From Candidatus Saccharimonadales bacterium (GTDB lineage: Bacteria > Patescibacteriota > Saccharimonadia > Saccharimonadales > UBA10212), in the NCBI GenBank assembly GCA_049521895.1, contig JBEKOJ010000001.1, forward strand, positions 482,717 to 546,716: DNA of 64,000 bases, written 5' to 3'. The position numbers and the translations under genes were made by a program. How positions within the stretch are numbered: position 1 is the stretch's first letter; every line of letters starts with the position of its first letter. Below the pieces are notes generated by a model that ran no database searches, was not told the origin of the DNA, and worked only from the letters and a program-made list of their open reading frames with translations. This document shows, one piece after another, positions 12,072-44,933 of the stretch.

Positions 12072-12503
12072 CTAAACGCCGCCGGATTTCCTAAAGGCCG
12101 CAAAAGCAATAAACGCCAAGGCTAATGCCACTATCACCGCTACCGCCACCGGCATGGACTGGCTCGGGTTAGGATTACCCGGTTTGGGAGGGGATTTTTT
12201 GTCTGATTTCTTAAGGTTTTCACCGGTATTTTTACTATCCGCCTCTGTTGATGGCTTTTTTTCTTCGCGGTTAACGCCTCTTACAACTTGGTCGAACACT
12301 TTGTCGCCGCCGGGATGCTGGTTGGCGGCAGCTGACGGAGCAGCTGCTATGGGATTGCCGGCCGTTTGGCTATCCTGAGCCTTGACCGGAATATTGTTTA
12401 CCAGCTCTGCCGTCACTTGCTCGGCAGCCGTAGGTACCGGAGGGTTACCGGTGGTCGCCGGAGGCGCGAAGTCGCGTATGTAAGGGCTTTTTGCAGGTTC
12501 CAT
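12072..12503 (-). CDS. Pro-rich hypothetical protein with a C-terminal TM anchor
   Basis: Track ORF 12072..12518 starts at a TTG inside a repeat element. The likelier start is ATG 12503 (MEPAKSPY...), preceded by GAGG at 9-nt spacing. Confidence 0.5.
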   Translation of the reverse strand: MEPAKSPYIRDFAPPATTGNPPVPTAAEQVTAELVNNIPVKAQDSQTAGNPIAAAPSAAANQHPGGDKVFDQVVRGVNREEKKPSTEADSKNTGENLKKSDKKSPPKPGNPNPSQSMPVAVAVIVALALAFIAFAAFRKSGGV

Positions 12504-12607
12504 CCCGTTAGACCTCAAAGACTTTCATTGTTGATTGATACGACGAAGCATGCAAGCGATTCAAGACGCCGTAGACGGCACGGAAGTTAAGTGAGGTTCT
12601 AACGGGA
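12503..12607. repeat. 105-bp TIR element, copy A (MITE-like or structured leader)
   Basis: Ends TCCCGTTAGACCTCA ... TGAGGTTCTAACGGGA with the core GAAGCATGCAAGCGATTCAAGACGCCGTA. A second copy lies at 23415-23519 in inverted orientation. Confidence 0.75.
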
Positions 12608-12667
12608 TCCATTACAGAGGTATTTTAGCATAACCACTAATGTTAGCAGATTGCATGGTTTAATTAG

Positions 12668-13312
12668 ATGATGAATCTTGACCAAAAGCTACGCCAAGCC
12701 GAGCAGCATTTAAGTCGGCATGACAAGCGGCTGGCGCCAGTTATCAAAATGTACGGCCATTGCACTATTAAGCCGCACAGTGATCACTACGGCGAGCTAG
12801 TCAGTAGCATCGTTGGCCAACAGTTGAGCACCAAAGCTGGTGCCGCCATTTGGCGGCGGGTGTTAAACCTGTTTGGCGGCAAAATGCCGACCCCAAAACA
12901 GTTGCTCAAAGTAGATGCCGATAAAATTCGGGTTTGCGGCGTCAGCTATACCAAAATCGGCTATATGAAAGACTTGGCGTCTCACGTTTTGGATGGCCGG
13001 TTGGATCTGCTGCACATTGCCACCATGCCCAACGAGCAGCTCATCGAACAGCTAACAGCAGTCAAAGGCATTGGCGAATGGAGCGCGCATATGTTTATGA
13101 TTTTTGGGCTGGGCCGGTTGGATATTTTGCCGGTCGGCGACCTGGGCGTGCGCAAAGCTGTTATGAATTTGTATCAGCTCAAGGAGCTGCCGGACCCGGC
13201 GCGGATGGTAACTATCGCTAACAAAAATAACTGGCATCCGTACGAATCGGTGGCCGCCTGGTATCTGTGGCAAAGCCTGGACAATAACCCCCAACGACCC
13301 ACACGCCACTGA
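12668..13312 (+). CDS. DNA-3-methyladenine glycosylase II-like (AlkA / HhH-GPD family)
   Basis: Contains IVGQQLSTKAGAAIWRR and the HhH-GPD region VKGIGEWSAHMFMIFGLGRLDILPVGDLGVRKA. Confidence 0.8.
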   Translation: MMNLDQKLRQAEQHLSRHDKRLAPVIKMYGHCTIKPHSDHYGELVSSIVGQQLSTKAGAAIWRRVLNLFGGKMPTPKQLLKVDADKIRVCGVSYTKIGYMKDLASHVLDGRLDLLHIATMPNEQLIEQLTAVKGIGEWSAHMFMIFGLGRLDILPVGDLGVRKAVMNLYQLKELPDPARMVTIANKNNWHPYESVAAWYLWQSLDNNPQRPTRH

Positions 13313-22101: not shown

Positions 22102-23415
22102 TTATGGTGCCAACCTGTTAATATCTCTAGGAAATAGTGTTGCTTCCTTTACGTTATTTAAGCCGATAATTTTTTCGGTTAATCGCTCTAGGCCCAAACC
22201 GAAGCCGCCATGAGGTGGCAGACCGTATTTAAAGGCTTGCAGGTAGTTCTTAAGACCAGGATCTTCTGGGTCGCCGACGGCCATTTTTTTGAGCTGCTTA
22301 ACCAGAGTGTCGTAGCGGTGCTCACGCATGCTGGTAGTAGCAATCTCCACACCACGGAAGAGTAGGTCAGCACGCTCGGCAAATTTCGGTTTGCCATCTA
22401 TGAGTTTGTGGTAAAACTTGGCCTCGGCTGCCGGCCATTCGGTGACAAATATGGCTTCTGAGCTAAGTTCTTTGGCGGCATATTCACAAATCCAGCGTTC
22501 CTCATCGGGCCGCAGGTCGTTTTCGCCAATGGTATTTTCGCCCGTGGCTTTGGAATATTTTTCGTGGATTTCGGCCATGGTCATAGCTGGAAATTCGGCA
22601 GGCAAAACCGGCTTTTTGGCATTCCAGAGGTTCAGCTGGGCCTCGCATTTCTCCCAAACATCTTTGACGACGGCATTAACTAAATTACTTAACAAGTTAA
22701 GTAATTCAGGGAAGGTGATAAAGCCCATCTCAACATCTATCGTTATAAATTCGGTCATGTGGCGCGTAGTGGCCGACGGTTCGGCGCGGTAAGTCGGGTT
22801 AATTTCAAAAACCCGCTCAAATACTCCCACCATCATCTGCTTATAAAACTGGGCGCTTTGGGCCAATGTTGCCTCTTTACCAAAATAATCCAGTTTGAAA
22901 ACCTCTGCCCCTCCCTCGGTAGCGCCAGGCAGCAGCTTGGGTGAGTTGAACTGGGTAAAATCTTGGCCATTCAGATATTTGCGGATGGCCTCTTCGGTCT
23001 CGGCTTGGATTTTGAATATTGCCTGTTCGCGGTTGTTGCGCAGCCCGATCACGCGTGCATCAAAAAGCGTGTCCAAATTTTCCGGCTTGTGGCTTAGGGG
23101 TTTATCAATTTCTACCGGCGACTCGTCCGTGACTGGTACGTCTACGGTAATTTTCGGCTCATGAATTTCCGCCCCGCCCGGTGCCCGCGGTTCATCAACT
23201 ACTTTTCCGGTGATAGCCAGGATGCTGCCGATCTGCAGGCCGCGCAGTTTTTCAACCTCGCCGTCCTCGCTCAATACGATTTGGACCAAACCGGAGCGGT
23301 CACGCATGACAATAAAGTTAATGCCGCCAATTAACCGTTTTTTGTGCAGCCAGCCTTGGATTTTAATCTCTTGGCCAACGTGGGATTTCACGTCGCGTGC
23401 TAAAACTCGCTCCAT
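22102..23415 (-). CDS. aspS: Aspartate--tRNA ligase, archaeal/type-2 form
   Basis: 437 aa with an OB-fold N-terminus and class II motifs: FNSPKLLPGATEGGAEVFKLDYFGKEATLAQSAQFYKQ, FRAEPSATTRHMTEF, GGFGLGLERL. Confidence 0.85.
   Translation of the reverse strand: MERVLARDVKSHVGQEIKIQGWLHKKRLIGGINFIVMRDRSGLVQIVLSEDGEVEKLRGLQIGSILAITGKVVDEPRAPGGAEIHEPKITVDVPVTDESPVEIDKPLSHKPENLDTLFDARVIGLRNNREQAIFKIQAETEEAIRKYLNGQDFTQFNSPKLLPGATEGGAEVFKLDYFGKEATLAQSAQFYKQMMVGVFERVFEINPTYRAEPSATTRHMTEFITIDVEMGFITFPELLNLLSNLVNAVVKDVWEKCEAQLNLWNAKKPVLPAEFPAMTMAEIHEKYSKATGENTIGENDLRPDEERWICEYAAKELSSEAIFVTEWPAAEAKFYHKLIDGKPKFAERADLLFRGVEIATTSMREHRYDTLVKQLKKMAVGDPEDPGLKNYLQAFKYGLPPHGGFGLGLERLTEKIIGLNNVKEATLFPRDINRLAP
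22683..22706. repeat. 24-bp palindrome AATTACTTAAC-AA-GTTAAGTAATT inside a CDS
   Basis: Has the same core as the palindrome family and encodes LLNLLS within aspS. Confidence 0.7.
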
Positions 23416-23519
23416 CCCGTTAGAACCTCACTCCGCTTCCATACCATTTACGGCGTCTTGAATCGCTTGCATGCTTCAAAACGCAAATATATTCTGATAG
23501 TCTTTGAGGTCTAACGGGA
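23415..23519. repeat. 105-bp TIR element, copy B (inverted relative to copy A)
   Basis: TCCCGTTAGAACCTCA ... TGAGGTCTAACGGGA, with the reverse-complemented core TACGGCGTCTTGAATCGCTTGCATGCTTC. Its first base is the last base of the aspS ATG. Confidence 0.75.
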
Positions 23520-23532
23520 TCCATTCTAGGTG

Positions 23533-30530: not shown

Positions 30531-30605
30531 TCCGGAGTAGCTCAATGGTAGAGCAATCGACTGTTAATCGATTGGTTGCCGGTTCGAGTCCGGCCTCCGG
30601 AGCCA
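30531..30605 (+). tRNA. tRNA-Asn (anticodon GUU), CCA encoded
   Basis: Cloverleaf: acceptor TCCGGAG/CTCCGGA, anticodon stem ATCGA/TCGAT with loop CTGTTAA, T-arm GCCGG-TTCGAGT-CCGGC, discriminator G, then CCA. Confidence 0.95.
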
Positions 30606-32171
30606 TTGTGAGCGAACAGCCGAAAAAGCGGCTGTTTTCTCTTTAGAAGAGCTGAAATTGTTGGTTCTAACCTTGTTAAAAGCTCTTTCTAGCTTTGGAT
30701 ACTCATTTCGTATTGGCACGAACCATAAATTTGGCTCAATTGTCAGTTGTTTTTCTTTGAGAATGAAGCTACTACCGAGGGTAGTAAAGATATCCCTCCG
30801 CTCCTGCTTCCCACCTGCTTTAAAGGATTGGCGAGCGTGTGTGGCAAAATCAAAGGTATTTTCGGTTAGTTCTAACCATTTTTCGGCACGCTCTTCTGTA
30901 TCACGCAATTGTTCTTTTAGTCGGTTGATTTCTCCAACGAGCGTCTCACGCTGCTCAATATACTCATCATCGTTTATTAGCTCTCTTAGTCTTAGCTTTG
31001 TGAGTGTGTCTAGTTGCTTCTGCGTAGCAAGCAATGCTTTGGCTTGATTTTCGTGTATCACTGTTCTTTCACTGATTTCTTGGTCATTATTTTCTCTAAG
31101 CACGTCTAAAGCCCAGTCTCGGAACTCTGGGAGAATTGTAATGCTGGCTAGATGTTCGTCAATTTGTTTTTCTAGCTCTGTTTCTGTTACTGAGCCTTTT
31201 TGGGAACAGGGCTTCTTATGGGTGCAGTGATAATAGACGTATTCTCGGGTCTCACCAGTGCTTTTAATATATTTTTGCTTAACTTCTGCCGTTATAGTGC
31301 AGCCACACTCGCCGCAAACAATAGGTCCACGATAGGTCATTTCGTGTTTCTTGGGCCGTGGCTTGCCCTTACGACCTAGTATTTGCTGCACTCTATCATA
31401 TTCAGCTAGGGTTACCATTGGCTTATGGCTGCCCTGATGTAGTTGTCCTAGATACCTAATTTGGCCTGCATAGAAAGGATTAGTAAAAATTCCATACAAA
31501 GCCGAACGAGACAAAGGGCCGCCGCCTGTTTTGCGTGTTTTTCTTAATCTAAACCCTAAATCAAACTCTGCGATATCAAGTATTTCAGGAACAGAGTAAT
31601 TACCTGTTAGCATCAGGTCCCACATTTTTCTTACAATAGGGAAACGCTCAGGGTCAATAATTATAATCTTTGAACCTTTATCTCTGTCGGGAGTATTTAA
31701 ATAGCCCGTTGGGGCCCAGCCTGGCTTCCAGCCCAGCTGTATCTTTTTTTCATTTCCACGTTTTACATCTTTGCTTAATTTGGCCGAGAAATACTGCGAT
31801 TGAGACATTACCATTTGGAGCATCATCATACCCTCTGGCGAGTTATCAAAAGTGTAAGAGCCGAACTTTAAGTCCAAAATCTTGCCATTTCTTATTCTGT
31901 AAGTGATTGAGGCAGCGTCTATTTCATTCCTAGATAAACGGTCAGGGTGCCAAGAGATTATTCCGTGTGCTTCACCCTCATCTATTCTTTTCAGCATCTG
32001 CTCAAAAATCGGCCTGTTGTTTGGTGTAAATGCACTGGCACTCTCAGGCGGTAGCTCAATTATCTCTAAGTCTGAAAATATCTGTCGGGCGTTATCTATT
32101 TGGCTTTGCAGTGAAAGAACCTGACGCTCTTCCTCTTCTGAGGATTTTCTAGTGTAAAGAAAGTATTTCAT
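30564..32171 (-). CDS. Large serine recombinase (integrase)
   Basis: N-terminal resolvase domain YTRKSSEEEE...HPDRLSRN, a recombinase domain, and a Zn ribbon CGECGCTITAEV...YYHCTHKK with a coiled coil. The last 14 codons are antisense to the tRNA. Confidence 0.9.
   Translation of the reverse strand: MKYFLYTRKSSEEEERQVLSLQSQIDNARQIFSDLEIIELPPESASAFTPNNRPIFEQMLKRIDEGEAHGIISWHPDRLSRNEIDAASITYRIRNGKILDLKFGSYTFDNSPEGMMMLQMVMSQSQYFSAKLSKDVKRGNEKKIQLGWKPGWAPTGYLNTPDRDKGSKIIIIDPERFPIVRKMWDLMLTGNYSVPEILDIAEFDLGFRLRKTRKTGGGPLSRSALYGIFTNPFYAGQIRYLGQLHQGSHKPMVTLAEYDRVQQILGRKGKPRPKKHEMTYRGPIVCGECGCTITAEVKQKYIKSTGETREYVYYHCTHKKPCSQKGSVTETELEKQIDEHLASITILPEFRDWALDVLRENNDQEISERTVIHENQAKALLATQKQLDTLTKLRLRELINDDEYIEQRETLVGEINRLKEQLRDTEERAEKWLELTENTFDFATHARQSFKAGGKQERRDIFTTLGSSFILKEKQLTIEPNLWFVPIRNEYPKLERAFNKVRTNNFSSSKEKTAAFSAVRSQWLRRPDSNRQPID
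30579..30604. repeat. attL-like 26-bp direct repeat (tRNA 3' end)
   Basis: CCGGTTCGAGTCCGGCCTCCGGAGCC, identical to 44908-44933. Confidence 0.85.
30616..30640 (+). terminator. Intrinsic terminator after tRNA-Asn
   Basis: Stem ACAGCCG / CGGCTGT, loop AAAAAG, then TTTT. Confidence 0.6.
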
Positions 32172-41110: not shown

Positions 41111-41123
41111 TTATGATTTGCGA

Positions 41124-41660
41124 ATGAGCTTATATTTCATTACAGGCAATAAGGGCAAGTTAGCCGAAGCCCAAGAGATACTACCAGAGATTGAGGGACT
41201 GGACATTGACCTGCCCGAAATACAAGGAGTTGATGCCCACAAGATTATTGAAGCTAAGCTACAAGCTGCACTTGAACATCAAGAGGGTGAATTTATTGTT
41301 GAAGACACCTCTCTTTATTACGAAGGGCTAAATGGATTGCCTGGGCCACTAGTAAAGTGGTTTTTAGAGACCGTTGGACCTGATGGCTTATATAAATTTG
41401 CGAAGGGCTTTAATGCATACAAAGCTACCGCAAAGACCATTGTTGGTTACGCCAAAGACCCAGACAATATTCAATTCTTTGAAGGCAATATTGACGGTGA
41501 GGTAGTAGAACCAAGAGGCGACCAGGGCTTTGGGTTTGACCCCATCTTTCAACCCAATGGTTATAATCAAACTTTTGCCGAAATGACTCTAGAAGAAAAA
41601 AACAATCTAAGTATGAGAAAAATAGCGTTCAACAAACTGCGAGAGTATCTAGGGAGATAA
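41124..41660 (+). CDS. rdgB: Non-canonical purine NTP pyrophosphatase (RdgB/HAM1, ITPase family)
   Basis: YFITGNKGKLAEAQEIL...EDTSLYYEGLNGLPGPLVKWF...GFGFDPIFQPNGYNQTFAEM. Confidence 0.85.
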   Translation: MSLYFITGNKGKLAEAQEILPEIEGLDIDLPEIQGVDAHKIIEAKLQAALEHQEGEFIVEDTSLYYEGLNGLPGPLVKWFLETVGPDGLYKFAKGFNAYKATAKTIVGYAKDPDNIQFFEGNIDGEVVEPRGDQGFGFDPIFQPNGYNQTFAEMTLEEKNNLSMRKIAFNKLREYLGR

Positions 41661-42124
41661 TAGTTCTAACTTCCATCACTACGGGGAGCCATTCGACTCG
41701 GCTCAATAAATTGAGCCTCGCTCATGGCCTTCGGCCGAGTCGAATGTCCTGAGCGAAGTCGAAGGACTGATAATTTATGGTCTATCTCTATATTCTCCGC
41801 AATGTTCGCAATCGACTTTACATTGGGCATGCTGAGAACTTAGACCAGTGTATATCCGATCACAAGACTAATCATGGCGCCAAATTTATAAAAGACCATG
41901 GCAATTTTAACCTCGTGTATACAGAGAAATACTCCTCTCGTGCTGAAGCTATGAAGCGCGAAAAACAACTGAAGGGCTGGACGCGAGCAAAAAAAGAGGC
42001 ATTAATCGCTAATGACCTAGCTCTGCTAAAGAAACTCTAGGAAGCGCTGTCCGGCCTCTCTTCGAGCCTGAGCGATGAGGCTCAGGCCTCAGAGCCGAAT
42101 GGCCGGAGCCACAAAGTTAGAACT
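41661..42124. mobile_element. GIY-YIG mini-cassette nested inside a GTTCTAAC-type repeat unit
   Basis: The left end TAGTTCTAACTTCCATCACTACGGGGAGCCAT and right end AGTTAGAACT together match the solo 42-bp unit at 42669-42710. GGAGCCA is duplicated at both junctions, and internal 11-13-bp inverted repeats are present (CATTCGACTCGGC / GCCGAGTCGAATG). Confidence 0.55.
41777..42040 (+). CDS. GIY-YIG nuclease-domain protein (87 aa, UPF0213-like)
   Basis: MVYLYILRNVRNRLYIGHAENLDQCISDHK...REKQLKGWTRAKKEALI. Confidence 0.85.
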   Translation: MVYLYILRNVRNRLYIGHAENLDQCISDHKTNHGAKFIKDHGNFNLVYTEKYSSRAEAMKREKQLKGWTRAKKEALIANDLALLKKL

Positions 42125-42140
42125 TTGCTATGATGACAAC

Positions 42141-42671
42141 ATGATTAAACGCTGGAAAGAGTTGAGCCGAGAGGAAGTTCTTAGGAAATACTCTTGGCTA
42201 ATTGAAAAGAGGGTTTATAAATTACCAAGTGGCGAAGTGGCCGATTACTACATTCGAGCCGTAAAATCGGGGGCTTGTGTTCTAGCAGTTACTGAAGGCA
42301 ATCAAATTGTTACGGTTAAGCAATATCGCCCTGGACCTGACCGAATTTACAATGAGCTACCTGGTGGAGTCGTAGAAGATGATGAAGATCCTAAATTGGC
42401 GGGTATACGTGAACTAAAGGAAGAAACTGGTTATTTTGGGGATGTGGTTTGGCGGGGTCAATGGCAGAACGATGCATATACTCAGCAAGAAAGAAATATC
42501 ATTGTCGCAACCAACTGCAAAAAGGTTAGCGAACCAAAACTGGATAACACAGAGTTTGCGGAAGTTGAACTTCTTAATATCAAGGATTTCATTACAAAAG
42601 CAAGAAATGGAGAGCTTACGGATACAGCTGGGGCTATGCTGGGATTAGATCATCTTGGGCTGCTAAAATAG
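42141..42671 (+). CDS. NUDIX hydrolase
   Basis: Nudix box GGVVEDDEDPKLAGIRELKEETGY. I set the start at ATG 42141 because the upstream part of the track ORF is repeat-encoded. Confidence 0.8.
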   Translation: MIKRWKELSREEVLRKYSWLIEKRVYKLPSGEVADYYIRAVKSGACVLAVTEGNQIVTVKQYRPGPDRIYNELPGGVVEDDEDPKLAGIRELKEETGYFGDVVWRGQWQNDAYTQQERNIIVATNCKKVSEPKLDNTEFAEVELLNIKDFITKARNGELTDTAGAMLGLDHLGLLK

Positions 42672-42710
42672 TCCTAACTTCCTCCACTACAGGGAGCCAT
42701 AGTTAGAACC
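42669..42710. repeat. Solo GTTCTAAC-type unit with 9-bp terminal inverted repeats
   Basis: TAGTCCTAACTTCCTCCACTACAGGGAGCCATAGTTAGAACC. Its TAG is the Nudix stop codon. Confidence 0.7.
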
Positions 42711-42719
42711 AAAATCTAT

Positions 42720-42740
42720 AGAGGTCAATCGCCTCTTTTA
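42720..42740 (+). terminator. Weak candidate terminator
   Basis: AGAGG-TCAATCG-CCTCT followed by TTTTATT. Confidence 0.4.
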
Positions 42741-42778
42741 TTCATTTGAGGGGGTATTTCTTGGTATAAAATAATCTT

Positions 42779-43030
42779 ATGACCACAAAAGAGATTGCCG
42801 AAGGTGTGGTGCACAAAGTGCCGGCGGATTTACGTAAAGCGTTGATATCTGATGAATCTGCACAAGAGCGGTGGGAAGACCTCACGCCACTGGCGCGCAA
42901 TGAATGGATTTGCTGGACAGTCTCCACCAAAAAACCGGAGACGAGAAAAAATCATATCGAGAGGACAATCACAGAGCTTTTGGAAGGCAAACGCCGGCCT
43001 TGTTGTTGGGCCGGCTGCATCCATCGTTGA
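42779..43030 (+). CDS. YdeI/OmpD-associated family small protein
   Basis: VPADLRKALISDESAQERWEDLTPLARNEWICWTVSTKKPETRKNHIERTITEL. Confidence 0.6.
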   Translation: MTTKEIAEGVVHKVPADLRKALISDESAQERWEDLTPLARNEWICWTVSTKKPETRKNHIERTITELLEGKRRPCCWAGCIHR

Positions 43031-43040
43031 AATAAGCAGC

Positions 43041-43059
43041 GGTTCTAATTTCCTCCGCC
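43041..43059. repeat. Variant GTTCTAAC-type repeat (GGTTCTAATTTCCTCCGCC)
   Basis: Located 11 nt after the YdeI-like stop and aligns with the TAGTTCTAACTTCCTCCAC units. Confidence 0.45.
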
Positions 43060-43123
43060 AGCCGGCGGAACTACGCCGGGGCCACGATTTACAAATACCA
43101 CAATTAGTGTTATTATTTGCTTT

Positions 43124-43427
43124 ATGAGCGAGGCATATCGACATATAGTTCTTTTTGGGCTTAAGCCTGAAACCAGTGACACAGACCCGAGCCAAAGCCG
43201 TTAACCTGTTACAGGAGCTTGGGCAAAGTGCAGTAGGTGTAAGAGAGTGGGTTGTGACCGAATCATTAGATAGCCGCAAGGGTGATGTCATTGTTGAAAA
43301 TGGGCTTTTTGAAAACCAAGCCGCTTTTGAGGAATTTAGAGCTTCCGAGGCACATCTTGAAGCTGGAAAATTTATGCAAGAAATTGCCGACTGGTTAGTT
43401 GGCGATTACCTAGAACATCAAAAGTAG
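43124..43427 (+). pseudogene. Dabb (stress-responsive alpha/beta-barrel) domain gene with an apparent frameshift
   Basis: The frame from ATG 43124 gives MSEAYRHIVLFGLKPETSDTDPSQSR* (a Dabb N-terminus). The rest of the domain (AKAVNLLQELG...FEEFRASEAHLEAGKFM) is in the +1 frame (track ORF 43155..43427). Confidence 0.6.
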
Positions 43428-43453
43428 TTCTAACTTCCTCCACTACGGGGAGC
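43425..43453. repeat. GTTCTAAC-type unit, left half only
   Basis: TAGTTCTAACTTCCTCCACTACGGGGAGC. Its TAG is the stop of the Dabb ORF. Confidence 0.65.
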
Positions 43454-43528
43454 AAGGGCCACTTTGGGTAAGATTTAAGAGCGCCCCAAAAGGCCCGGTG
43501 CAATGGTTCTTAGGGTATTGATGAGCAT

Positions 43529-44827
43529 CTAGAGCAAAGTAACTTGCTGAGCTGGAGCGAAATTTTTCCAATCCTTGTCAGAGAATATATGCACCGTACC
43601 GAATTCACCGTCATAACCAGGTTCAATTTGAAGCTGGTGAGTCCGGACACGCTTAATGGCTTCAGCGATTATGGGGCTGCTGGCAGCTTTGATAGAATCC
43701 AGATCCGCATCAAGCAGTACATTCAATTCGTCACTAAAGGTCTGCAGAAGCTTATCATATTGAGCGGTCACTTTTTTGGTGCCCGGTTTTACACGAAGAG
43801 CCTCGGCAATTATTTCTTCCAGGGGAACCAAAGACCAATAATCTGGCGCGCCCGAGGGCTTTTGGCCAGCAGGCCGGTCAGCTAGTGTTTCAACCCGCGA
43901 TAGTACGCCCACGGTAACCGGGCGGCCGCATACCGGGCAAAGGCCTTTGTGCTGTTTAGTCTGCTGCGGGTCCCAGCGGATACGGTGGGCGCTATGCCCA
44001 TCATAATGGTACTTGCCTTCCTCGGGAAAGAATTCAATGGTGCCAGCAAGTCTGGTGCGCGGCGTTGCAAGCTGTTGCTTTGCCCTGGCCGGTGCCCCAT
44101 ATTGTAGGGCGGCGGCCATGCCGTTGTAGCTAAGTTCACCGTCAAACTTGGTGGCTTCGCGGGCTAGTTTGGTAGCCGAGTGAGCATCGGAGCTAGACAT
44201 TAAAGCTACTTGATCCAGCTTGCTCAGTCGCCAGTTCATTGGCGGATCAGACGACAAGCCTGTTTCTATAGCCAAAATCTTGGGGGTTAGTTCTTCAAAA
44301 CACTCTTCGAGCGAATCAAATCCTGACTGCGAGCCTAGAACCCCAAACCATGGCGTCCAGGCATGAGCAGGTATTACTAAAGCTTCGGGATGAGCGATAA
44401 AGGCTAGCTCAGCAACTTGCTTAACGCTCAGGCCTACTATTGGCCGGCCGTCGCTGGCTAGTTTGGCTCCGTGGGTTGCCAGCAAGCTACTAAACCCTGA
44501 GGCGGCTTCAAGAGAAGGGACTAAAACCAGGGTATGAACACGACGGCCTCTGCCACCCTGCTGGTAAATGCTGGAGATCTCCACGCTCAAGACAAAACGG
44601 GTAGTGTTGCCGTCGGAAGCATCCTTTAACATCAATAAGCCCGGTTCTGGGGCAGGAGTTAGTAACTGTCTTATTTCGGAGAACCAGATAGGGTGTGTAA
44701 AATCGCCGGTTCCTAAAACGGTCAACCCTTTCTTGCGGGCAAATTCGTCAAGTATGGGTAAGGTTAGATAGCGCGAAGTAGCACGGGCAAAGCGCGAATG
44801 GACATGAAAGTCGGCGTAGTAAACCAC
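43529..44827 (-). CDS. PHP-domain protein of the endonuclease Q (TIGR00375-like) family
   Basis: N-terminus VYYADFHVHSRFARATS, a central PHP region, and a Zn-finger-like CPVCGRPVTVGVLSRV. GTG start. Its GC looks host-like by eye. Confidence 0.65.
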   Translation of the reverse strand: MVYYADFHVHSRFARATSRYLTLPILDEFARKKGLTVLGTGDFTHPIWFSEIRQLLTPAPEPGLLMLKDASDGNTTRFVLSVEISSIYQQGGRGRRVHTLVLVPSLEAASGFSSLLATHGAKLASDGRPIVGLSVKQVAELAFIAHPEALVIPAHAWTPWFGVLGSQSGFDSLEECFEELTPKILAIETGLSSDPPMNWRLSKLDQVALMSSSDAHSATKLAREATKFDGELSYNGMAAALQYGAPARAKQQLATPRTRLAGTIEFFPEEGKYHYDGHSAHRIRWDPQQTKQHKGLCPVCGRPVTVGVLSRVETLADRPAGQKPSGAPDYWSLVPLEEIIAEALRVKPGTKKVTAQYDKLLQTFSDELNVLLDADLDSIKAASSPIIAEAIKRVRTHQLQIEPGYDGEFGTVHIFSDKDWKNFAPAQQVTLL

Positions 44828-44907: not shown

Positions 44908-44933
44908 CCGGTTCGAGTCCGGCCTCCGGAGCC
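44908..44933. repeat. attR-like 26-bp direct repeat (orphan tRNA-Asn 3' end)
   Basis: CCGGTTCGAGTCCGGCCTCCGGAGCC, identical to 30579-30604. No complete tRNA can be folded here. Confidence 0.85.

Follow-up and report, generated by a model that had tools for sequence, protein, structure and literature searches.

What is the short repeat that follows the stop codons of four successive genes in a 64-kb stretch of a Candidatus Saccharimonadales genome (contig JBEKOJ010000001.1, positions 482,717 to 546,716; hereafter the window, to which all coordinates given without a locus number refer), and does it delimit single-gene modules in the manner of cassettes, as the original prediction proposed? The repeat was found to be a 29-nt motif, here called L, with the consensus GTTCTAACTTCC(AT/TC/..)CACTACGGGGAGCCA, the last 7 nt of which (GGAGCCA) are those of the 3' end of tRNA-Asn. 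Judged by its sequence, L appears to be composed of an element-specific arm of ~20 nt (GTTCTAACTTCCNNCACTAC) and a short copy of the tRNA-Asn 3' end (GG-GGAGCCA). L stands at the end of successive small genes in the window and in at least 31 other Saccharibacteria loci, in almost all cases shortly past tRNA-Asn, and so most likely marks the seams of stacked gene modules. We give an even chance to the more specific reading that L is the attachment-site (att)-type right end of small integrase-less modules, which are stacked at a tRNA-Asn hot spot of Saccharibacteria.

The motif L in the window and in other genomes

Searching the window for GTTCTAACTTCCTCCACTACGGGGAGC with up to three mismatches returned matches at 41663, 42671 and 43427, all on the plus strand, whereas 100 shuffled controls returned none, which rules out a chance origin of the three matches. 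The first copy (41663-41691, plus strand, no mismatches to the consensus) begins behind the stop codon (TAA, 41658-41660) of an ITPase (Ham1) gene (41118-41660, plus strand; PF01725, E = 1.4e-43), the last gene ahead of the first L. The second copy (42671-42699, plus strand, 4 mismatches) overlaps the stop codon (TAG, 42669-42671) of a Nudix gene (42141-42671, plus strand; PF00293), the G of which is position 1 of L. In the same way, the stop codon (TAG, 43425-43427) of a Dabb-like gene (43124-43427, plus strand; weak PF07876 match, E = 8e-4) provides position 1 of the fourth copy (43427-43455, plus strand, 3 mismatches), which ends in GCAA, not GCCA, and carries no right arm. The third copy (43042-43084, plus strand) is decayed and was identified by gapped alignment 11 nt 3' of the stop codon (TGA, 43028-43030) of a YdeI/OmdA gene (42779-43030, plus strand; PF13376). 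It consists of GTTCTAATTTCCTCC, a 13-nt insertion and ACTACGCCGGGGCCA, and with a further 2-nt insertion and a 1-nt deletion it matches L at 24 of 29 positions; a variant predicted at 43041 was indeed related to L, its exact site being this decayed copy. The repeat units proposed at or just after the stop codons of the ITPase, Nudix, YdeI and Dabb genes were thus confirmed at all four gene ends, and the order of the window modules is ITPase-L, Nudix-L, YdeI-(decayed L), Dabb-L. Scanning the 64-kb window with a weight matrix derived from 40 independent copies detected no additional L.

The repeat had been described as a palindromic unit of ~40 bp, with a single complete solo copy at 42669-42710. 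A complete unit is present at 42671-42710, and its arms (GTCCTAACT and AGTTAGAAC) are complementary at 8 of 9 positions, but it folded no better than shuffled sequence (z = -0.12) and is not the only complete one. The copy at 41663 is a second complete unit, interrupted by a 420-bp insertion (41692-42111), past which its right arm R (CAAAGTTAGAAC) is found (42112-42123, plus strand). Alignment of the copies yielded a consensus as anticipated, but the conserved part proved to be the 29-nt L and not the 40-bp palindrome: about three-quarters of the copies lack the right arm. R (GTTAGAAC) follows only 4 of the ~44 non-redundant L copies in addition to the split copy 1 of the window. This short arm may derive from part of an inverted L.

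When one genome per GTDB species was scanned, eight L loci were identified, all of them in metagenome-assembled genomes of Saccharibacteria/Patescibacteria, and a metagenome scan added 40 further loci (referred to below by number, e.g., L001). These loci, examined with flanks of mostly ≤8 kb, collapse to 31 non-redundant contexts besides the window. Among 2.9 million viral contigs, none was found to contain L, and a phage or plasmid origin was rejected on this ground. Each matching GTDB genome gave one L locus, and the window copies were confined to one array; in the DNA that could be searched, which included no whole genome, the motif is not dispersed and occurs, apart from the one window array, mostly downstream of tRNA-Asn. 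Positions 2, 3, 20, 21, 28 and 29, which the search pattern left free, were still conserved in 36-39 of 40 copies. The information content was ~0 from position +1 on, so the similarity ends right after GCCA, and a weak A-rich lead was seen before L, with A at position -6 in 36 of 41 copies and TA at positions -2 and -1. Secondary copies inside the loci, which had not been selected by the pattern, showed 1-7 mismatches and included a second L subtype (..AAGTACGTCCACTAG.GGGAGCCA).

L stands 3' of a co-oriented gene in nearly all contexts, with the stop codon of that gene -6 to +71 nt away, and in ~17 of 40 cases L itself provides the stop codon (TAG ending at position 1, or TAA at positions 5-7). 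The arrays span 1-5 modules, mostly single genes of 0.3-1 kb, and single-gene spacing was seen in L021 (five copies), L001 (three copies) and L008, L014, L020, L042 and L045 (two copies each). A co-oriented tRNA-Asn(GTT) was located 0.27-2.5 kb upstream in 14 other contexts, including a partial tRNA-Asn at the contig end of L017; in the window, the distance from tRNA-Asn to L is 11 kb. The place of tRNA-Asn is taken by tRNA-Gln in two contexts and by tRNA-Met in one. The cargo, which in the window comprises the ITPase, Nudix, YdeI and Dabb-like genes, includes HAD hydrolases, S-adenosylmethionine-dependent (SAM) methyltransferases, P-loop kinases, PhnB-like, Rce1-like and PNPOx-like proteins, cytidine deaminase and unknowns, and few gene families recur among the modules. 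YdeI homologues lie 3' of an L in L005, L007 and L008, with differing upstream genes. A tRNA-Asn/YdeI arrangement was considered as the ancestral empty site and rejected, since the varied contexts of YdeI homologues do not make this a clean test.

Two loci showed particular arrangements. In L008 (7363-7440, oriented coordinates), the YdeI gene is followed by a partial YdeI 3' end of another allele and next by a degenerate ..CTAGGGGAGCCA end; this double YdeI end suggests replacement or duplication of a YdeI-L module. In L056, a strong L at 12900 stands behind the gene of an ABC-2 permease, no tRNA being present within 14 kb, and just after YdeI lies a second-subtype L that is degenerate; L is therefore not strictly confined to tRNA-Asn loci.

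DNA found past the final GCCA

A few classes account for the DNA that starts immediately past the GCCA of L, and most of these classes were also seen past the GCCA of tRNA-Asn genes and displaced tRNA-Asn 3' remnants. One class consists of R (AGGTTAGAACC..) and a terminator of the form AGAGG..CCTCTTTT (AGAGG..CCTCT), and stands directly 3' of tRNA-Asn in L010/L027. In the window, a composite of R (TAGTTAGAACC) and a terminator-like hairpin (AGAGGTCAATCGCCTCTTTT) occupies 42700-42741 (plus strand); it was found 3' of tRNA-Asn in the same L010/L027 and 3' of L in L001 and L039. Other terminators (AGCATAAGCACTTTG.. / AGCATAAGC) and the left end of a GIY-YIG mini-element (TTCGACTC...) likewise follow both L and tRNA ends. 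A further class is formed by promoters with the -35 box 2-5 nt past GCCA, several of which bear an ACCAC..GTGGT palindrome. The GC-rich, recurrent hairpin element TCCTCCGTCGCA..(GGGTTAG)CTATGGAGGAT.. (class B; L003 1085-1165, L014, the L035 group, L021 1721-1790 and L001 6613-6680) begins exactly past the GCCA of L and, in L021, was also found after the GCCA of tRNA-Gln. A pairwise comparison placed the boundary at the same point: L048 and L001 share 88% identity over the stretch that begins at the tRNA end, contains a HAD gene and closes with L, but past L they are unrelated. Ahead of most tRNA-like right ends stands C(G/A)CT(G/A)(T/C), and both L and the right attachment site (attR) of the window island described below have CCACTAC there.

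The 420-bp insertion in the window (41692-42111, plus strand), which lies directly 3' of the first L and past its GCCA, is the GIY-YIG mini-element. It encodes an 87-aa GIY-YIG protein (open reading frame (ORF) at 41777-42040, plus strand; Pfam PF01541) between a left-end hairpin (CATTCGACTCGGC...GCCGAGTCGAATG) and a right end (CGCTGTCCGGCCTC...CGGAGCCA), and GGAGCCA stands on both sides of the insertion (41685-41691 and 42105-42111). In L001, the element, with its left hairpin, GIY-YIG ORF and right end (CGCTGTCCGGCCTCCGGAGCCA), directly follows tRNA-Asn and is accompanied by an 18-nt repeat of the tRNA end; L048 represents an empty site for it. It was further found after tRNA-Gln in L033 and, as in the window, after L in L023/L025. 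The left hairpin begins with the CA of the preceding GCCA, the ORFs encode 87-99 aa, and the right end mimics the tRNA-Asn 3' end. In L025, the right end differs from that of the local tRNA-Asn, so the element brings its tRNA-like end with it. The 66-nt left hairpin is 98% identical between the window and L023/L025, and the ORFs are ~68% identical. The element therefore occurs as a discrete insertion, one that appears to use tRNA-Asn, tRNA-Gln or L ends.

These junctions would be explained if new DNA had been joined repeatedly and exactly past the final GCCA of a tRNA gene, a displaced tRNA remnant or L. A module that ends in L restores a target, so that arrays can grow; the GIY-YIG mini-element would have entered later, after the GCCA of the first L of the window. 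On this reading, the joining would be site-specific recombination with a crossover in or beside GGAGCCA, carried out by a recombinase acting in trans, for which a large serine integrase like that of the window island is the prime suspect, and only a suspect. Speculatively, L could be an attP-type half-site, 5 nt longer than an attB-type half-site in the tRNA. The cassette-like character that had been proposed thus holds for the delimiting of single genes, the sharp ends, the mosaic flanks and the species-specific cargo, but not for the palindrome, which is not conserved.

A wider reading, in which the tRNA-Asn 3' end acts as attI and L as the portable site on self-promoted single-gene cassettes, would amount to integron-like gene capture in Saccharibacteria; we regard it as unlikely, if worth considering. 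The enzyme supplied in trans may then be a serine integrase whose crossover is unusually terminal, or else the small GIY-YIG nuclease, and the GIY-YIG mini-element may be a parasite of the same site. To our knowledge, complete integrons have not been found in genomes of the ultra-small size class of Saccharibacteria.

The tRNA-Asn island and competing explanations

The array had been predicted to belong to an island bearing a serine recombinase, and this was borne out. It sits within a 14.3-kb island downstream of tRNA-Asn(GTT) (30531-30605, plus strand; detected by ARAGORN and as Rfam tRNA with 75 bits; 3' end ...CCGGCCTCCGGAGCCA). A 26-nt direct repeat (CCGGTTCGAGTCCGGCCTCCGGAGCC) lies inside the tRNA gene on the attL side (30579-30604, plus strand), and its copy on the attR side (44908-44933, plus strand) is directly followed by the flank AATACTTAACAAGTTAAGTATTTT. 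The same flank follows the last tRNA remnant in L010/L027, the left side of which is syntenic with the window; it is therefore apparently the ancestral tRNA-Asn flank, and the DNA between the tRNA and this flank has been inserted. The large serine recombinase (535 aa; 30564-32171, minus strand; Pfam Resolvase, Recombinase and Zn_ribbon_recom) is related to the A118 integrase and SPbeta YokA. Its ORF enters tRNA-Asn from the island side, and its last 14 codons overlap the 3' part of the tRNA on the opposite strand (30564-30605). The attR arm of the island matches the L arm at 10 of 20 positions, including the CCACTAC before the tRNA-like segment (empirical p ~0.014); this likeness is suggestive only.

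Several results weigh against L being the att-type end of modules. The junctions behave as expected of recombination in their sharp ends and mosaic flanks, but the att repeats of the island are 26-nt copies of tRNA-Asn and not L; the identity of L with the tRNA end extends over 7 nt (GGAGCCA), compared with 18 nt for the repeat of the GIY element. No recombinase was detected near L by tblastn with the window serine recombinase and an approximate E. coli XerD query in 55 loci (322 kb), a search of limited sensitivity. The left ends of the modules are heterogeneous, so a complete attP cannot be reconstructed. Among the contexts with at least 2 kb of upstream DNA, L005/L012 (7 kb upstream) and L056 (12.9 kb) contained no tRNA. 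The L set was gathered by a search pattern and is biased to well-conserved copies, the strict pattern missing variants. L always lies on the transcribed strand 3' of a gene, which leaves room for an RNA role. Finally, no circular or excised form was seen, and no presence/absence polymorphism on the contigs examined among the 23 read from the window species.

These contigs were obtained through the exact YdeI protein, which was listed in 36 blocks; of the 23 contigs read, 7 places were shown and 16 similar ones were collapsed. The order ITPase, GIY, Nudix, YdeI, Dabb and a 432-aa gene was the same on every examined contig on which these genes are reached. The invariant order suggests that the array is fixed in the window species, where it also appears to be partly decaying. 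The apparently frameshifted Dabb-like gene and the decayed L are consistent with an old, inactive array. The expected cassette variation was thus absent within the species but present between species, the gene content of which differs.

A number of other identities of L were examined and rejected. L is not the 3' half of a real tRNA, as no T-arm can be drawn and the GTDB and metagenome matches all lie after protein genes and not in tRNAs. Copy number, spacing and clustering do not fit clustered regularly interspaced short palindromic repeats (CRISPR), DNA-uptake sequences or repetitive extragenic palindromic (REP) elements. By inspection, L lacks the dyad and the XerD-arm motif of a dif/Xer site. 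Inverted L copies do not form transposon ends, the best candidate (L001) having 8 mismatches and none reaching 12 bits. A Rfam scan at gathering thresholds returned tRNA only, and a scan at E <= 10 returned noise and no match for L, which is thus not a known RNA family.

It is improbable, in our estimate, that L functions as an RNA element of 3' untranslated regions, which would mimic the tRNA-Asn 3' end by a hairpin (CUUCC/GGGAG) followed by GCCA, would serve in trimming, stability or termination, and would have spread along with tRNA-Asn trailers and terminators. The position of L at -6 to +71 nt from the stop codon of a co-oriented gene agrees with such a role, as do its termination exactly in GCCA like a mature tRNA, the terminator hairpins of tRNA-Asn that often also stand behind L, and the copies found far from any tRNA. 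However, hairpin folding was no better than in shuffled sequences, and covariation was uninformative: the 5-bp helix is 90% paired with essentially no informative variation, its stem positions are fixed by the search pattern, and the single pair change occurs in two related copies. Diverged copies lose the stem yet keep CACTA and AGCCA, the failure to match Rfam extends to E <= 10, and the copies cluster at one type of locus rather than behind many genes. An RNA role would also leave unexplained why unrelated DNA starts exactly past GCCA and why L and tRNA ends serve interchangeably for a mobile GIY element.

The chance that no dedicated enzyme is involved also appears small. In that case, L, tRNA-Asn and its remnants would be homology anchors for RecA exchange after natural transformation, or L would be a fossil module end. 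The lack of a recombinase in cis at the other L loci and the unchanging array within the species point in this direction, and so do the greater divergence of copies not selected by the pattern (1-7 mismatches), the window copy with insertions and deletions and the frameshifted cargo gene. Against this, L with its 29 nt is very short for homologous exchange, more mismatches than the 0-3 seen between species with coding DNA ~70-80% identical would be expected of a neutral fossil, and anchors alone fail to explain junctions exactly at GCCA.

We assign a still lower probability to the idea that the small GIY-YIG nuclease mobilises or targets non-autonomous elements, with L as their right end and the GIY mini-element as the autonomous counterpart; cleavage by the nuclease would occur at ...GGAGCCA ends, with DNA inserted or exchanged there during repair. 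The GIY element is inserted at exactly the junction of all other modules, its right end shares C(G/A)CT(G/A)(T/C) before the tRNA-like segment with other tRNA-like right ends and L, and its left hairpin is 98% identical between two species in which the ORFs are ~68% identical. Most arrays, however, contain no GIY gene, the 87-aa protein amounts to the catalytic domain alone, no DNA-binding domain being recognisable, and we know of no GIY-YIG enzyme that catalyses integration.

An integrase-less integron array (CALIN), in which the units would be attC sites, is scarcely credible and has been largely refuted. Such sites are imperfect palindromes of about 57-141 bp, in which R'' pairs with R' and L'' with L', and they are recognised in the form of a folded single strand. 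The co-oriented cassette-like single genes with a repeat after each, and the arms GTTCTAAC and GTTAGAAC, which match the R'' (RYYYAAC) and R' (GTTRRRY) consensus at 6 of 7 positions each, are countered by units of 39-41 nt, below that size range, by the lack of the right arm in most copies and by conservation of sequence and not of structure. No tyrosine recombinase lies nearby: IntI/Phage_integrase had no match in the window ORFs tested or in the Pfam table for ±10 kb, and tblastn with the approximate XerD query was negative. L modules also carry their own promoters, which integron cassettes rarely do (PMC4889954).

Among known systems, the Dehalococcoides ssrA islands are tandem and bounded by a 20-bp repeat of the 3' end of the RNA gene, just ahead of which lies a conserved 15-bp element motif; an integrase is absent from some members, and the ORF of their CcrB-like serine integrase DsiB overlaps attL (PMC3146451). 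L arrays share with genomic islands of this type and the staphylococcal cassette chromosome (SCC) the tandem units directly downstream of a small stable-RNA or essential gene, the boundary formed by a direct repeat of the target gene 3' end (as seen for the island, with 26 nt, and for the GIY elements, with 18 nt), the conserved element motif just upstream of it and the occurrence of integrase-less (cis-mobilizable) members; the extension of a CcrB-like large serine recombinase ORF into attL has its counterpart in the window recombinase entering tRNA-Asn. L modules differ in being mostly single genes of 0.3-1 kb, whereas ssrA and SCC islands measure several kb; in a repeat that shares only 7-9 nt with the target gene, the element arm holding most of the conservation; and in having tRNA-Asn as the target and no integrase with L outside of the window. 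With integrons and CALIN, the modules have in common one conserved 3' site per single-gene cassette, heterogeneous 5' ends and same-orientation arrays of diverse small accessory genes beside a fixed anchor. However, L is a 29-nt sequence and attC a structure-defined hairpin of 57-141 bp, most L copies have no R' box, the modules are self-promoted, IntI is missing, and the anchor is a tRNA 3' end.

The pdif (XerC/XerD) modules of Acinetobacter plasmids, which belong with other elements that make use of Xer recombination at dif, are small, carry sites of ~28 bp, form tandem arrays and depend on a recombinase encoded elsewhere. L modules resemble them in size, in the short site and in tandem arrays at one site, but L has neither the XerC-spacer-XerD layout nor the TTATG..AA arm, and its copies are all direct repeats, not alternating, and tRNA-linked. 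REP elements and miniature inverted-repeat transposable elements (MITEs) are likewise short repeats found just past stop codons and are sometimes palindromic, whereas L is low-copy, clustered at one locus type, mostly non-palindromic and sharply bounded by a tRNA-like end.

Other repeats and genes of the window, and implications

The 9-mer GGTTCTAAC occurs four times in the window (12595, 23419, 30663 and 42702) versus 0.37 expected. The excess noted in the original prediction is thus real, but its link to L is not, as the contexts are unrelated: no other part of L is present at 12595, 23419 or 30663. The occurrence at 30663, taken before as a related site near the island end, lies inside the recombinase ORF. 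Those at 12595 (not 12597) and 23419 had been assigned to the ends of terminal inverted repeat elements and tied to the repeat at the gene ends; they are instead the ends of a separate 110-nt repeat with two inverted copies that are ~85% identical (12497-12610, plus strand, and 23413-23522, minus strand; ends ATCCCGTTAGACCTCAAAG... / ...GAGTGAGGTTCTAACGGGAT). The end of this repeat is a ribosome-binding region with the spacer before an ATG (GAGGTTCTAACGGGATG). In L003, the last 20 nt of the repeat provide an ABC ATPase gene with its ribosome-binding region, spacer and ATG, and the copy at 23413 adjoins a gene for a class II aminoacyl-tRNA synthetase (D/K/N type) at its start codon. The 110-nt repeat had no Rfam match and may be a shared 5' leader or regulatory element.

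A promoter-like sequence (TTTACA-17 nt-TATTAT, 43088-43116, plus strand), read from the sequence, begins 3 nt past the decayed L, and promoters or operators of this class were also found 3' of L or tRNA-Asn in L004, L020, L021, L033 and L045. In the family TTTACAAATACCAC-N5-GTGGTATT(-10), an ACCAC/GTGGT palindrome lies between the -35 and -10 boxes (window 43088-43120). Its members start 2-5 nt past a GCCA end, ahead of unrelated module genes, and look like a shared operator.

The Nudix gene has in-frame ATG codons at 42075, 42099 and 42141, the first two of which lie within the right end of the GIY element. The Dabb-like gene is apparently frameshifted: its N-terminus (MSEAYRHIVLFGLKPE..) is encoded in the frame of the ATG at 43124, which runs to a stop near 43202, and the remainder in the frame 43155-43427. 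Since one 90-aa Dabb-like call was made on all strain contigs shown, this is probably a real pseudogene or a programmed shift and not an assembly error. Convergent with the array lies the 432-aa gene (43529-44827, minus strand; MJ0043_C domain). A homologue that is 70% identical is found in L003 (1218-2513, plus strand), directly downstream of L and on the same strand as L; the strand difference between the window and L003 indicates that the module was inverted in one of the two lineages.

A search of the accessible literature found no description of L or of tRNA-Asn-linked module arrays in Patescibacteria. The gain and exchange of accessory genes in the tiny genomes of Saccharibacteria/Patescibacteria are poorly understood, and L provides a searchable 29-nt marker for a recurrent gene-gain hot spot. 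The junction past GGAGCCA is a defined place for testing candidate enzymes, and the L site is a candidate neutral or natural insertion site for genetics in the now-transformable Saccharibacteria. Even if L were only a fixed relic, it would still be useful as an island-boundary marker for annotation. The cargo consists mostly of small nucleotide and metabolite enzymes (ITPase, Nudix, HAD, deaminase, kinases and methyltransferases), which hints at what these epibionts exchange.

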